A DNA stretch of 14,618 nt from Allocoleopsis sp. (GTDB lineage Bacteria > Cyanobacteriota > Cyanobacteriia > Cyanobacteriales > Coleofasciculaceae), in NCBI RefSeq assembly GCF_036703385.1, contig NZ_DATNPA010000018.1, positions 1 to 14,618 on the forward strand, given 5' to 3'. Position numbers and translations under genes: made by a program. A model generated the notes under the pieces. That model had not been told where the DNA came from. It saw nothing but the letters and a program-made list of their open reading frames with translations, and did no database searches. This document shows positions 10,592-14,616 of this stretch, piece by piece; position 1 is the stretch's first letter, and each line of letters opens with the position of its first letter.

Positions 10592-11872
10592 TTACGCGCT
10601 AATCATGGGCTTATATAACAAGTCCCGTGTGGCTACCATCGCCGCCACCAAGCGATCCATTTCTTCTTGGGTATGGAGGGCGTTTACCGTAATCCGAAGG
10701 CGGGGTTTGGCAATGAACCAGATGGGTGAAACCCAAATCCCATGCTTCTCAAGCATCAGCCGACCAAAAACTTTCGGATTGAGTTCGGGTGGCAGAAGCA
10801 CTGGTACTACATTGGTTTCGCCAATGGCGGTAAAACCCTGTTCGATTAGGCGCGATCGCAAATAATCAGTATTCTCCTGAAGGACTTTCACCCGTTCTGG
10901 ATATTGGCGAACCTGACGAATGCTCTCTAAGGCTGCCGCTGTTAGGGGTGGCGACAAGGAAATCGTCCCAATGGAAGTAGGAGAGACATTCAACAGGGGA
11001 ATGAGTTCCGCCACATGAGAGCTAATTGCCGCACCGGCAGAAGCGGCGAACTTAGAGAACGTGGTCATAATCAGTGGGACAATACCCCGCTCGATCGCCT
11101 GCTGTGGCAGAATCCCAAAATGTTCGTAAATCCCTCTACCTGTTGCACCAATCGCACCACTGGCATGGGCTTCATCCATGACCAGAACGCTGCCATCATA
11201 AATTTGCATCACATCCAGCATGTCTGGCAGGGGCGCAATATCGCCATCCATCGAGAACACCGCATCCGAAACGACCATAATGCGATCATCAGGACGCACA
11301 TATCGGCGCAGCTTGCGAGCCAAATCCTCAACATCACAGTGACGATAGGCTCTAACACGGACGCGGGGACTGTGACCGAACAATTTTCCGGAACGGGTAC
11401 CAGCATTCGCAAGTGCCGAGACAATGCAGCCGTGGTTGAGAACGTCTGTCAGAATTAACGTTTCACGAGTATGCTGAAATCCGGGCACTGGAATCGCCAA
11501 ATGGCAAAAGGCATCCATTAAGGCTTGCATCGCCATCCACGCATTAATGAACAGCTGAGTGTGAGGCAGATGCTTAAACTCAGAAATTTCCTGTTCTAAC
11601 TGCCGATGCAGATCAATCCGGCCGCTCAAGACGGAACAGGAACTATTCGACGTTCCATATTGGAGGATGGCGTCAATAGCGGCTTGCTTCACCGCCTCTT
11701 CCTGAACCAACCCTAATACATCATTGGTGCAGAACGTCAATACCGTTCGGCGTTTCCCTGTCGTTGCCTCTTCAATTTCGACTAAATTCCCCCGCTTCTG
11801 ATGACAGATATATTCATCCGGATCTAACTCACTCTCGTACCAACGCTGAACGTACTCTTTGACAACTTGCAC
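10592..11872 (-). CDS. PLP-dependent alpha-oxoamine synthase family: 8-amino-7-oxononanoate synthase (BioF)-like or serine palmitoyltransferase-like
   Basis: The family glycine-rich motif appears as TFCTNDVLGL (compare FSSNDYLGL). The PLP-lysine motif is TFSKFAASAGAAI (compare TLSKAFG). A DEAH-like motif (VMDEAHASG) and the class-II aminotransferase fold are present. The protein is 426 aa with an N-terminal extension. Confidence 0.8.
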   Translation of the reverse strand: MQVVKEYVQRWYESELDPDEYICHQKRGNLVEIEEATTGKRRTVLTFCTNDVLGLVQEEAVKQAAIDAILQYGTSNSSCSVLSGRIDLHRQLEQEISEFKHLPHTQLFINAWMAMQALMDAFCHLAIPVPGFQHTRETLILTDVLNHGCIVSALANAGTRSGKLFGHSPRVRVRAYRHCDVEDLARKLRRYVRPDDRIMVVSDAVFSMDGDIAPLPDMLDVMQIYDGSVLVMDEAHASGAIGATGRGIYEHFGILPQQAIERGIVPLIMTTFSKFAASAGAAISSHVAELIPLLNVSPTSIGTISLSPPLTAAALESIRQVRQYPERVKVLQENTDYLRSRLIEQGFTAIGETNVVPVLLPPELNPKVFGRLMLEKHGIWVSPIWFIAKPRLRITVNALHTQEEMDRLVAAMVATRDLLYKPMISA

Positions 11873-12118
11873 AACTTGCTCCTCTCACCCTTTCCCTAGG
11901 TAGCCTATTAGCCTATCGCCTCTAGCTAAAGAATTGCTTTATTTTTAGATAAGATAGCGGCTATCCAGTTTGATTACTATGCCTCACGAGAGTTGATCTG
12001 AAAATATCGGCCCATCTATGAAGCAAACTTCTCCAATAAGTTGGGTACTGAGGCGGTATCAGCGGCCCGTTGATGAGGGAGCTGAACAGCCAATCTACAG
12101 TCGCCGTTAAAGGTGCCT

Positions 12119-13273
12119 TCATCCTACAAATGAATTGTTTGGGGTTGACTCAGTCTGACTTGGAACATTAACGGACGATAACGTCCCAGACGCCAAAGAT
12201 GGCTGATTGTTTCGTAGCTGACTCGATTTTTGCATAAATTGTTCATATTGCCGGATAATCAGCCGCTCAAGAGCTATAATAGCCGGGTTGATTTCGACAT
12301 AGCGTCGCTCTGGATTTGCCAAATAGCTTCGCTGTTCGCTCTCCATCATTTCGATATCTTGAGAGAGAAACCTCATAAATACGAAATCTCTCAGGACTTT
12401 TTGCACAATCGGTTCTAGGCGATTCAGCAGCCATTTGGGCAAACGAACTTTTAAGAAGAAGAAGGCAAACGACCGACTTTCCCTCAATCCGATGGGCAGC
12501 CGCATCAGATAAACGGAGGAAACCCCCTCCAGACTTGTTGCGTAATGAGGATAGTTGTAGTTGATGGAGATTCTACGGGTCGTGACCTGGTCGGCCTTGT
12601 CGCTCAACCCCAAAAACTTTGCCATCCGGCCTTTATAGGATACGTCATATTCAGCACATACCGAAGTTTCTGTTTCCCGCAAACTCTTGAGTACCGGATT
12701 GAACCACCCCTGAAGATTTTGGTGCAAAAATCCATGAAATACATCCATCGCATTTTCATTACAGATGGAAAAATGGGATTGCATGTGAGCGGCTAGGGGT
12801 ATCATCAAGTAGTCAGGATGGTCAAACTCTGGCACATTGGGCAGTTCTTGGCTGGCAGCAAGGGTCGGCTCGCCGGGGAAAAGCCAAATCAAATTATATT
12901 TTTCCTGGACTGGGTAATGGCGGGCTTGAGCACGGGGAAGTTTTTGTCCTTCTGGAAGGTAAGGAATGCTCACACATTCGCCGTGGCCATTAAACTCCCA
13001 ACCATGATAAGCACAGGTTAGATGACACCCTTGGACTTTCCCCTTGTGTAGAGCAATGCCTTTGTGAGGACAGGCATCCTCTAAGGCATGGATTTGACCG
13101 GTTTCATCCCGATAAACGGCGATCGCTTGCTGCCAAATCACGACAGGCATGATGTCTCCTGCCTTGAGCTGGCTTGCCCAACCCACCGGATACCAGTAAT
13201 TGGGGTTAATGCCTACTTCCCGGACAGCATTTTGAACTGTCTGGCTTTTTAGGGTCGTCGCCAGTTCCATCAA
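12119..13273 (-). CDS. Rieske [2Fe-2S] non-heme-iron oxygenase (alpha-subunit-like, KshA/PAO-type)
   Basis: The Rieske motif is CPHKG...(16)...CAYHGW. A mononuclear-iron motif ENAMDVFHGFLH lies downstream. The protein is 384 aa and lacks a C-terminal CxxC. Confidence 0.8.
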   Translation of the reverse strand: MMELATTLKSQTVQNAVREVGINPNYWYPVGWASQLKAGDIMPVVIWQQAIAVYRDETGQIHALEDACPHKGIALHKGKVQGCHLTCAYHGWEFNGHGECVSIPYLPEGQKLPRAQARHYPVQEKYNLIWLFPGEPTLAASQELPNVPEFDHPDYLMIPLAAHMQSHFSICNENAMDVFHGFLHQNLQGWFNPVLKSLRETETSVCAEYDVSYKGRMAKFLGLSDKADQVTTRRISINYNYPHYATSLEGVSSVYLMRLPIGLRESRSFAFFFLKVRLPKWLLNRLEPIVQKVLRDFVFMRFLSQDIEMMESEQRSYLANPERRYVEINPAIIALERLIIRQYEQFMQKSSQLRNNQPSLASGTLSSVNVPSQTESTPNNSFVG

Positions 13274-13356
13274 TCATGCCTCTTGTGTTTATCTGACAAT
13301 ATTTAGCTTCCGACGCTCCTGAAAGTCAACTAATTATTCGTGTGCGAATCAAAAAA

Positions 13357-13420
13357 CCTGTAACAACCGTCTCTACAAATTGAAACAATTTGCATTATTG
13401 TTACAGGTTGTTACGAAAAC
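13357..13420. promoter_or_regulatory. Nested palindrome plus an HLR1-like direct repeat in the divergent Rieske/MFS intergenic region
   Basis: The outer inverted repeat is CCTGTAACAA (13357-13366) / TTGTTACAGG (13398-13407). The inner inverted repeat is CAAATTG (13376-13382) / CAATTTG (13386-13392). The direct repeat GTTACAGG-TT-GTTACGAA (13400-13417) resembles the RpaB HLR1 consensus (G/T)TTACA(T/A)(T/A)NN(G/T)TTACA(T/A)(T/A). Confidence 0.4.
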
Positions 13421-13437
13421 GTCGAGAGGCAGATCTC

Positions 13438-14616
13438 ATGTTGCGCGATCGCAGGCTATTAGTACTGTTAGCAGCAGGTTCACTCACCAACCTAGCGGGG
13501 GGAGTTGTGGCTCCAATTTTGCCAGAGATGATCCAACAGCTCCACTTCGACCCGGCCTTAGCTGCTAACTTGGTGAGTATGCATTGCTTGACTATTGCCC
13601 TATTCAGCCCACCGCTGGGCATCTTGGCAGACCGGCTCGGTCACTTGCGGGTGCTGGTTCCCTCACTGATTTTCTACGCCCTGTTCGGTGTAGCAGGAGC
13701 CTTTATGCAGAGTTTTTGGCCTCTGTTGGCGACGCGGGCGTTGCTGGGTGCTGCCAGTGGCGGGATAGCAGCCGCTAGTTTGGGCTTACTGGGAACTATG
13801 TATGAAGGCGAGGAGCGATCGCAAGCTTTAGGCATCACGACTAGTACCTTAGCCCTCACCGGCATTGCCTTCCCCTTAATCGGAGGTTGGGTCGGTGCCA
13901 CTCACTGGCAATATGCTTTTTATGTGTATGGACTAGGACTACCCCTCGCCGGAATAGCCGCCTTCAGCCTGAGGGAAAAGCGAAAGACCAAAGCCAAGCC
14001 AATGGCAAAAGACGAGGGCGATAAGCTCCGTGTCGTTTTAGGGCACCCCCATACCCTGCGCCTATTACTAACCCTTAGCCTCACCTCAGTCGCCATGTAT
14101 GCGGTTGTGATCTATGCACCGCTCTATCTGAAACAGACAATTGACGCGGGAACGGCTGTCAATGGCATTGTTTTGGCATCACGAGCCGTAGGAGCCGCGA
14201 TTATCTCAGCTTTTGGCGCTAAACAACTGGCTAAAGCGGTTGGGCCAGCTAAAGCGATCGCGATCGGATTTGGCATCATGGCTTTGACTTTAATCACAAT
14301 CCCTGTACTAACCCAACTGAGCTGGATTCTACTAACAGCCATTCTTTTTGGTGTCGGATTCGGGATTGTACTACCGACTCTCTACAGCATCCTAGCCAAC
14401 TTAGCGCCTTCATCACTCAAATCTAGTGTTCTAGCAGCTGGAACAGGAGCAGGTTTCTTGGGACAGTTCCTGTCTCCCATCTTGCTCGGCCCCATGCTCA
14501 GGTACAGGGGGCTAGAAGCTGTCTTTTATACCGCTGCCAGTATATCGATGGTTGCAGGATTATTGCTGTTAGCGCGATCAGATAGAAATCCTAGCATCTC
14601 TTGCAAAAATAGTTAG
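13438..14616 (+). CDS. MFS transporter (12 transmembrane helices)
   Basis: The MFS signature is GILADRLGHLRV in loop 2-3. A central basic loop (REKRKTKAKPMAKDEGDK) separates two 6-helix halves. The start is taken at ATG 13438 (MLRDRRLLVLLAAG, preceded by GAGAGG). The ORF-track start at 13390 overlaps the regulatory palindrome. Confidence 0.8.
   Translation: MLRDRRLLVLLAAGSLTNLAGGVVAPILPEMIQQLHFDPALAANLVSMHCLTIALFSPPLGILADRLGHLRVLVPSLIFYALFGVAGAFMQSFWPLLATRALLGAASGGIAAASLGLLGTMYEGEERSQALGITTSTLALTGIAFPLIGGWVGATHWQYAFYVYGLGLPLAGIAAFSLREKRKTKAKPMAKDEGDKLRVVLGHPHTLRLLLTLSLTSVAMYAVVIYAPLYLKQTIDAGTAVNGIVLASRAVGAAIISAFGAKQLAKAVGPAKAIAIGFGIMALTLITIPVLTQLSWILLTAILFGVGFGIVLPTLYSILANLAPSSLKSSVLAAGTGAGFLGQFLSPILLGPMLRYRGLEAVFYTAASISMVAGLLLLARSDRNPSISCKNS

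Follow-up and report, generated by a model that had tools for sequence, protein, structure and literature searches.

The stretch of DNA analysed here (the window: 14,618 nucleotides of contig NZ_DATNPA010000018.1 from Allocoleopsis sp.) carries, in its last four kilobases, the genes for an alpha-oxoamine synthase (AOS), a Rieske non-heme-iron oxygenase and a divergently transcribed major facilitator superfamily (MFS) transporter. These three genes are the core of a gene cluster that is kept together in many cyanobacteria. Judged by curated sequence cut-offs, the AOS is not BioF, KBL, serine palmitoyltransferase (SPT) or ALAS, and its sequence places it in a discrete, highly conserved and mostly cyanobacterial family. 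We propose, with moderate confidence, that what the cluster builds and tailors (and exports) is a sphingoid or long-chain-base type of amino-lipid, rather than biotin. Of this proposal, the catalytic residues and the synteny are directly observed. The MFS gene points away from the Rieske gene, which is followed on its own strand by the AOS gene and then by psbK. The features are as follows.

10592..11872, minus strand: alpha-oxoamine synthase, pyridoxal phosphate (PLP)-dependent, 426 residues, GTG start (Pfam PF00155).
11873..11965, minus strand: conserved block upstream of the AOS, putative promoter/operator and ribosome-binding site (from cross-genome alignments).
11961..12122, minus strand: possible 53-codon open reading frame (ORF), with its ATG overlapping the stop codon of the Rieske gene.
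12119..13270 (alternative start 13273), minus strand: Rieske non-heme-iron oxygenase, alpha-subunit-only, 383 residues from ATG 13270.
13290..13329, minus strand: Rieske promoter-like block (from cross-genome conservation).
13355..13409, no strand: nested inverted repeat.
13396..13417, plus strand: predicted MFS core promoter with an overlapping direct repeat.
13438..14616, plus strand: MFS transporter of the DHA1/efflux type, divergent to the Rieske gene (Pfam MFS_1).

The three genes and their motifs lie where a first-pass annotation of the sequence had placed them, as judged from the ORFs, the Pfam matches and the signature residues. The same annotation described the Rieske gene as sitting directly upstream of the AOS gene; in fact the Rieske stop and the AOS start lie 246 bp apart (11873-12118), and this spacer contains sequence that is conserved upstream of the AOS elsewhere. 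The divergent region between the Rieske and MFS genes measures 167 bp (13271-13437). The window contains many GCGATCGC sites in addition to psbK, and the sequence is cyanobacterial. The exact AOS protein is otherwise recorded only on a 6.5-kb contig, where the gene order is identical.

The AOS matches Pfam Aminotran_1_2 (PF00155) with an E value of 2.7e-32. The signature residues are all in place: N50 in TNDVLGL, H147, the D233-E-A-H236 motif, the PLP lysine K274 in TFSK and the C-terminal arginine R393 (RLRIT); the enzyme looks catalytically competent. This catalytic set is common to all AOS enzymes and does not tell BioF from the others. Residue 42 of the protein aligns with residue 43 of the Sphingobacterium SPT and with approximately residue 39 of E. 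coli BioF. The N-terminus is therefore of normal length, and the atypical extension of about 40 residues reported previously is not there; the roughly 28 extra residues are internal insertions (residues 42-414 of the query against 43-387 of the SPT chain). The first 40 residues, normal in length, are family-specific in sequence: in a HMMER search, alignments start at residue 1 for members of the family and at about residues 27-45 for other AOS enzymes.

Class membership was judged by the NCBI curated equivalog cut-offs. The top-scoring NCBIfam model is that of BioF (TIGR00858), with 232.5 bits (cut-off 426.45). The two KBL models give 184.6 and 155.1 bits (cut-offs 460 and 493), the SPT models NF047600, NF047599 and NF047603 give 171.8, 161.2 and 117.1 bits (cut-offs 640, 500 and 670), and the ALAS model gives 161 bits (cut-off 339). 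The CqsA-type model, at 96 bits, is likewise below its cut-off, and a BioF/Kbl-related model is far below. Among solved structures, the best match is a bacterial SPT (140 bits), followed by KBL (about 93-115 bits), ALAS (69-100 bits) and BioF (38-115 bits), with overlapping ranges; CqsA structures reach 40 bits. NCBI names members of the family only ‘aminotransferase class I/II-fold PLP-dependent enzyme’. Close homologues carry the automatic JGI name ‘glycine C-acetyltransferase’, which the KBL scores do not back; no threonine dehydrogenase gene is found among the conserved neighbours of the AOS loci.

The simplest alternative is that the AOS is the BioF of this organism, as the first-pass annotation had itself considered, or a paralogue of it, and that the Rieske and MFS genes are unrelated neighbours. 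The rank of TIGR00858 as the top model and the complete set of catalytic residues, which like the fold are the same as in BioF, are consistent with this. However, the score is far under the cut-off, BioF structures rank with the weaker matches when the four classic clades are compared (within the overlapping ranges given above), and the NCBI name of the family is not BioF. The window protein is about 30 residues longer than BioF through its internal insertions. Canonical cyanobacterial BioF proteins form a distinct, monophyletic group of about 394 residues, and in N. punctiforme PCC 73102, which makes no long-chain bases or ceramides, the canonical BioF is the only AOS and suffices alone (Belton et al., PMC8895605). 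The conserved neighbours are lipid-type enzymes and not bio genes, none of which occurs among the conserved neighbour families in the 80 loci described below. We therefore regard a role as BioF as very improbable.

An exhaustive HMMER search with the AOS against 1.84 billion cluster representatives delimits the family. Its nearby set comprises only about six full-length representatives, at 38-64% identity, and the score then falls from 275 to 176 bits before the remaining AOS enzymes appear. The bulk beyond this boundary includes proteins named BioF or KBL by their source (35-38% identity); no cyanobacterial BioF was found among the names of the 20 representatives examined from that search. 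Across the 80 loci described below, identity is 77-94% for the AOS, 57-94% for the Rieske protein and 44-81% for the MFS protein. The AOS is thus far more conserved than its two neighbours. Nevertheless, its family has a patchy distribution; N. punctiforme is without it according to PMC8895605.

The neighbourhood of the AOS was compared across genomes in a scan of one genome per species, which returned 117 AOS-related stretches. Locus counts are taken from the best 80, which belong to Coleofasciculaceae, Chroococcidiopsidaceae, Nostocales, Leptolyngbyaceae, Phormidesmis, Thermosynechococcaceae, Acaryochloridaceae and others. In 59 of the 80 loci the AOS has a Rieske gene upstream on its own strand, and in 44 an MFS gene is divergent to the Rieske or AOS gene. 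At Rieske-less loci, found in Thermosynechococcaceae and Acaryochloridaceae, the MFS gene adjoins the AOS directly. Conservation of the three-gene neighbourhood, which the first-pass annotation had proposed as a check, is thus borne out: the Rieske-AOS pair with a divergent MFS gene recurs across cyanobacterial orders. The same annotation would have given up the idea of a module if the AOS clustered firmly within BioF and the neighbours were not conserved; neither was found.

Recurrent partners were found by clustering all ORFs of the related loci, and their counts were restricted to the 46 loci that have 4.5 kb or more of flanking sequence on each side. Here the Rieske gene is present in 37 loci, a GNAT gene in 33, the MFS gene in 27, a GH3 gene in 21, a short-chain dehydrogenase/reductase (SDR) gene in 18 and an FA_hydroxylase (FAH) gene in 17; all but one of the 46 have at least one partner gene. 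The GNAT partner is a tandem-GNAT protein of 381-391 residues, encoded immediately downstream of the AOS in most relatives and almost without Pfam or NCBIfam signal; a search of solved structures gave no meaningful relatives. The SDR partner is an extended SDR of 319 residues with an NAD-dependent epimerase/3beta-HSD domain. The GH3 amido-synthetase contains the full set of three GH3 domains and weakly matches the lyso-ornithine-lipid synthetase OlsH (90 bits, cut-off 620). Further partners are a small membrane protein of the FA_hydroxylase family (PF04116), an OlsC-like acyl 2-hydroxylase (264 bits, cut-off 450), an exporter of the ATP-binding cassette (ABC) type resembling DevA/DevC (DevC-like, 150 bits), and Mpo1-like, Amidohydro_2 and Cupin_8/JmjC proteins; MacB/FtsX domains were also found among the partners. 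The fullest arrangement reads Amidohydro_2< Mpo1< FAH< GH3> MFS< Rieske> AOS> GNAT> SDR> ABC< DevC<.

In the closest relative of the window, locus L078, an FAH gene lies just past the MFS gene, which is the point where the window ends. The association extends to more distant members of the AOS family. An AOS with 64% identity is accompanied by SDR, GNAT and DevB-like genes, one with 49% identity in a Pseudomonadota metagenome-assembled genome adjoins a divergent FA_hydroxylase gene, and one with 39% identity comes after an Amidohydro_2 gene. The earlier suggestion of a lipid or specialised-metabolism module gains weight from this conservation across orders and from the further lipid-type partners in the relatives.

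The Rieske protein has the [2Fe-2S] motif C67-P-H69...C86-A-Y-H89, which is kept in 56-58 of 59 orthologues. For the mononuclear iron, the criterion was the pattern D/E-x3-D-x2-H-x4-H in a VanA_C-type catalytic domain; the protein has E172-NAM-D176-VF-H179-GFL-H183, and ENxMDVFHGFLH is kept in 58 of the 59. Both motifs are those expected of the alpha-only VanA/DdmC/SxtT type. In Pfam, the Rieske domain scores 84.6 bits and VanA_C 24.9 bits (cut-off 23.5). The best matches in the PDB are SxtDIOX, SxtT and DdmC. SxtDIOX, the best structural relative, has an H-x4-H iron spacing, whereas the histidines of the window protein are one residue closer (H-x3-H). The best NCBIfam match, over the full length, is the sterol 4beta-methyl monooxygenase SdmA (NF052579), with 241.8 bits and an E value of 1e-71 against a cut-off of 600.

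The MFS protein matches MFS_1 (PF07690) with 190.5 bits over residues 27-363, in agreement with an MFS_1 domain across 12 predicted helices. Judging from the N-termini of the orthologues, translation is likely to start at ATG 13438 and not at TTG 13390. The best NCBIfam matches are weak ones to the efflux models BcbE (82 bits) and Tet(A) (70 bits), and no specific transporter equivalog in NCBIfam reaches its cut-off.

The amino-lipid proposal follows from the set of partners: an AOS, a putative N-acyltransferase, a putative keto-reductase, lipid hydroxylases and envelope exporters. The curated family closest to the Rieske protein, that of the sterol methyl oxidase SdmA, points to lipids too. 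In the first step, the AOS would join an amino acid to an acyl-CoA or acyl-ACP, with release of CO2, to give a 2-amino-3-keto compound. The Rieske enzyme would then hydroxylate, or further oxidise, a C-H position of that lipid, probably with electrons from ferredoxin, and the MFS protein would export or flip the product, outward transport being our assumption. In the relatives, the full pathway would run from condensation through N-acylation and keto-reduction to hydroxylation and export to the cell envelope. Such a route would follow the logic of bacterial ceramide synthesis by Spt, bCerS and CerR, through different protein families. As the AOS falls below the cut-offs for SPT, BioF and KBL, and the Rieske protein below that for SdmA, these likenesses are to be read as ‘works like’ and not as ‘is a’.

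In Caulobacter, ceramide is made by Spt, the acyltransferase bCerS and the NDUFA9-like reductase CerR (PMC11087976). The cyanobacterial cluster resembles this pathway in combining an AOS, a putative N-acyltransferase and a putative reductase of the extended-SDR type, and the order AOS>GNAT>SDR, whose members are present in 18-33 of the 46 loci, mirrors it. The best solved structure for the AOS being a bacterial SPT agrees with this, as does the company of lipid hydroxylases and an envelope exporter. There are, however, clear differences. The cyanobacterial AOS fails all three SPT cut-offs and forms a family of its own; the acyltransferase is a tandem GNAT; no dedicated acyl carrier protein (ACP) or acyl-ACP synthetase is encoded; and a Rieske oxygenase and a GH3 protein are added, the window itself having only the AOS, Rieske and MFS genes. 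A second comparison is with the ornithine-lipid pathways (OlsH, OlsC; PMC12493201). Related loci have GH3 and OlsC-like genes, both below cut-off, but ornithine-lipid pathways work without an AOS, and the GH3 and OlsC-like genes are absent from the window.

Several observations weigh against an amino-lipid product. To our knowledge, sphingolipid-like lipids are not recognised as a general feature of cyanobacteria. The window lacks the GNAT, SDR, GH3 and hydroxylase genes and has psbK after the AOS, and tblastn detected no remnants in it of GNAT, SDR, GH3, FAH or other cluster genes. The conserved neighbours include neither an ACP nor any acyl-activating enzyme. The GNAT has no NCBIfam match better than E 0.005, and the families closest to the SDR are HpnA (218 bits, cut-off 368) and SdmB (NF052578; 152 bits, cut-off 600). 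Finally, two distant homologues lie in other surroundings: at L085 the AOS (41% identity) comes directly after response-regulator, PAS and histidine-kinase genes, and at L083 (45% identity) it is found with a non-ribosomal peptide synthetase (NRPS) condensation protein, an MbnB/TglH-like enzyme and a class V aminotransferase.

These last two loci would fit a cluster making a small diffusible alpha-aminoketone or alpha-hydroxyketone, either a signal of the CqsA/LqsA kind or a natural-product building block, that is secreted by the MFS protein and is not a membrane lipid. AOS enzymes do make CAI-1-type autoinducers, with an SDR then converting the amino-ketone made by CqsA, and a divergent MFS gene of the efflux type is typical of secreted metabolites. 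However, the scores against the CqsA-type model and the CqsA structures (96 and 40 bits) are low, the cyanobacterial loci have no conserved sensor kinase, and an AOS identity of 77-94% across orders would be unusual for secondary metabolism. The FA_hydroxylase, OlsC-like, Mpo1-like and DevBCA-like partners favour an envelope lipid, and we consider a diffusible product unlikely.

The matches of the Rieske and SDR proteins raise a further alternative, in which the cluster modifies an existing lipid of the polycyclic or isoprenoid kind (a hopanoid or a compound resembling a sterol): the two enzymes would act as the sterol C-4 demethylase pair SdmA and SdmB do, and the AOS would add a head group derived from an amino acid. 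SdmA and SdmB are likewise a Rieske oxygenase and a 3beta-HSD-type SDR acting on a lipid; the best curated match of the window Rieske protein is SdmA over its full length, and the SDR matches the hopanoid-associated HpnA as well as SdmB. Hopanoids are made by many of the lineages that carry the cluster. Yet the SdmA, HpnA and SdmB scores are far under their cut-offs of 600, 368 and 600, and the cyanobacterial pair, unlike SdmA/SdmB, is tied to an AOS and has no sterol or hopanoid synthesis genes nearby, neither a squalene-hopene cyclase nor an hpn gene being among the conserved neighbours. An occasional neighbour of the B12-radical-SAM type, considered as a link to hopanoids, is not HpnP or HpnR (59 bits, cut-off 650). 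We know of no hopanoid or sterol pathway that uses an AOS. The chance that the substrate is a lipid of this class therefore seems to us small, lower still than that of a diffusible signal.

The AOS is preceded by about 90 nucleotides of sequence that is conserved throughout the phylum. In the alignments, this block consists of GGATAGC, TATACT, GAGCCAGAGGCGATAGGCTATCT, AAGGTGAGAGGAGT and the GTG start, with AAGGTGAGAGGAG ahead of the GTG in the relatives, and the GTG start is near-universal in loci L001-L080. In the window, the GGATAGC motif is represented by a palindrome, GATAGC-C-GCTATC, at about 11953-11965, and the TATACT -10-like box is degenerate; the GAGCCAGAGGCGATAGGCTATCT element has an 8-nucleotide tandem duplication (ATAGGCTA twice) in the window, which is also present in L078. 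The block is probably the AOS's own promoter/operator with a strong ribosome-binding site, so that the AOS is not necessarily co-transcribed with the Rieske gene; since the -10-like box is degenerate in the window, read-through from the Rieske promoter may matter more there. A structured RNA leader was also considered for this region and was rejected. Rfam gave no match at E up to 1 over 9800-14618, RNAalifold found no consensus pairs in 53 sequences from upstream of the AOS, and a hand-drawn CYAGA/TCTRG stem had 67.8% of cells paired against 67.9% in shuffles.

The palindrome GATAG-N(1-3)-CTATC occurs twice in the window, at 11953-11965 and at 2038-2048, about 30 nucleotides upstream of the ddl start; we estimate that chance would give about 0.04 occurrences. 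In other genomes the conserved AOS leader includes its core, GATAGGCTATC. The palindrome may be a putative operator shared by the two genes and recognised by some common regulator.

The possible 53-codon ORF also falls between the Rieske and AOS genes, its ATG overlapping the Rieske stop codon as ATGA. It is open in L078, L005 and L008 (40-85% identity) and truncated in L009, and more distant loci gave no match. A small coupled gene is one possible reading of it; the other is a by-product of DNA conservation.

In the divergent region, a block on the Rieske side, TTGACT (13329-13324) followed after 18 nucleotides by TAAATATTGTCAGATAAAC, recurs in the majority of 33 orthologous intergenic regions from distant genera and reads as the Rieske promoter. 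On the other side, TATTGT at 13396-13401, a TAnnnT box overlapped by the right arm of the palindrome described below, is kept in seven of nine aligned relatives and is the predicted -10 element of the MFS gene. A sigma-70 consensus scan of 10000-13600 called no promoter, and the promoter assignments are therefore drawn exclusively from cross-species conservation. The Rieske and MFS genes would share a divergent promoter region, which in this lineage has repeats placed over the predicted MFS -10 element and start, the position from which repression would be exerted.

The inverted and direct repeats reported earlier in this region are all present, exactly where they had been described. The outer inverted repeat is formed by CCTGTAACAA (13357-13366) and TTGTTACAGG (13398-13407) with a 31-nucleotide spacer, and encloses the inner one, CAAATTG (13376-13382) and CAATTTG (13386-13392), with a loop of three nucleotides. 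The outer repeat extends to 12 perfect base pairs, or to 15 nucleotides at 93%, with extended arms AACCTGTAACAA and TTGTTACAGGTT. A perfect arm of at least 12 bp arose in none of 2000 mononucleotide shuffles and in three of 2000 Markov shuffles, and the nested-repeat region folds at -17.4 kcal/mol (z = -3.7). Of the 33 orthologous regions, however, those of the window, L078 and L003 alone keep the outer repeat, and L005 has it marginally. Comparison of the window with L078 shows one compensatory change in the inner stem (CAAATTG/CAATTTG to CAGATTG/CAATCTG), which is offset by a change in the outer arm that is not compensated. The repeat was accordingly rejected as a conserved operator or hairpin. 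The repeat that the first-pass annotation proposed as a control region is real, but only the closest relatives share it, and as a control element it does not define the module.

The direct repeat GTTACAGG-TT-GTTACGAA at 13400-13417, with a periodicity of 10 bp, had been likened to HLR1, the element bound by RpaB. The consensus used was (G/T)TTACA(T/A)(T/A)-N2-(G/T)TTACA(T/A)(T/A), and by position an HLR1 site should lie near -5 or -51 from the start site, that of the MFS gene being a predicted one here. In Synechocystis, RpaB represses in low light from HLR1 sites near the start position (PMC6525291). By analogy, the MFS gene would be held down by RpaB when light is low. The two octamers spaced by two nucleotides reproduce the 8+2+8 architecture of an HLR1 operator, and the element is centred near the start predicted from the TATTGT box, which is the repressing position (PMC6525291). 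The first octamer is kept in eight of ten close relatives and the second in part, most of them having xTTxCxAA. However, the resemblance requires three mismatches, and at this stringency the window has three hits against 3.30 expected, with 130 of 200 shuffles doing as well; all three lie inside one TTGTTAC-rich patch. The half of the repeat that is conserved falls on the -10 region, where conservation is to be expected in any case, and more distant orthologous promoters lack the element. The likeness to HLR1 is therefore no better than chance by count, and we regard a genuine RpaB site as possible but doubtful.

Some features elsewhere in the window may be mentioned. psbK occupies 10029-10166; the 156-residue ORF at 10029-10499 (minus strand) is over-extended, its PsbK match being limited to the last 45 or so residues. 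No feature is assigned to the 425 bp that separate psbK from the AOS stop. A 463-residue protein encoded at 8417-9808 (plus strand) matches the SPFH/Band 7 domain and the ‘shoulder’ domain of the major vault protein, and has no NCBIfam family. The long intergenic region upstream of ddl contains, at 1790-1960, clustered short palindromes of G/C runs (for example CCCCCTTAAAAAGGGGG, CCCCCCAATTTTGGGGGG and CCCCCAGAATTGGGGG), which together look like a dispersed hairpin-repeat element.

The distribution of the family may bear on scattered reports of sphingolipids in cyanobacteria. Scytonema and Moorea, the sources of reported ceramides, have additional AOS genes, and further cyanobacterial homologues of AOS were proposed as the next targets to be tested (PMC8895605). 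Several Scytonema and Heteroscytonema genomes carry the AOS family described here. Our literature searches for an AOS-Rieske cluster in cyanobacteria, or for a characterised second AOS from these organisms, yielded only PMC8895605, and in the library searched we found no publication characterising the AOS family or the cluster. A more far-reaching reading, which is speculative and which we think rather improbable as a whole, is that the AOS family, the tandem GNAT and the SDR constitute a third, independently assembled bacterial route to sphingoid or ceramide-like lipids that is widespread in cyanobacteria and is the genetic basis of these reports; the Rieske enzyme would then be a new long-chain-base hydroxylase or desaturase, and the conserved AOS leader the regulatory switch of the route.

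Sphingolipid-like and other amino-lipids shape the outer membranes of bacteria and their interactions with hosts, and we know of no cyanobacterial genes for the biosynthesis of such lipids; the one genetic study that we found arrived at the conclusion that N. punctiforme lacks a pathway (PMC8895605). The present analysis corrects two automatic annotations of the AOS, as a glycine C-acetyltransferase and as a presumed bioF. The family of AOS homologues, now separated from BioF, and its conserved partners are thereby defined as a concrete set of genes for genetics.

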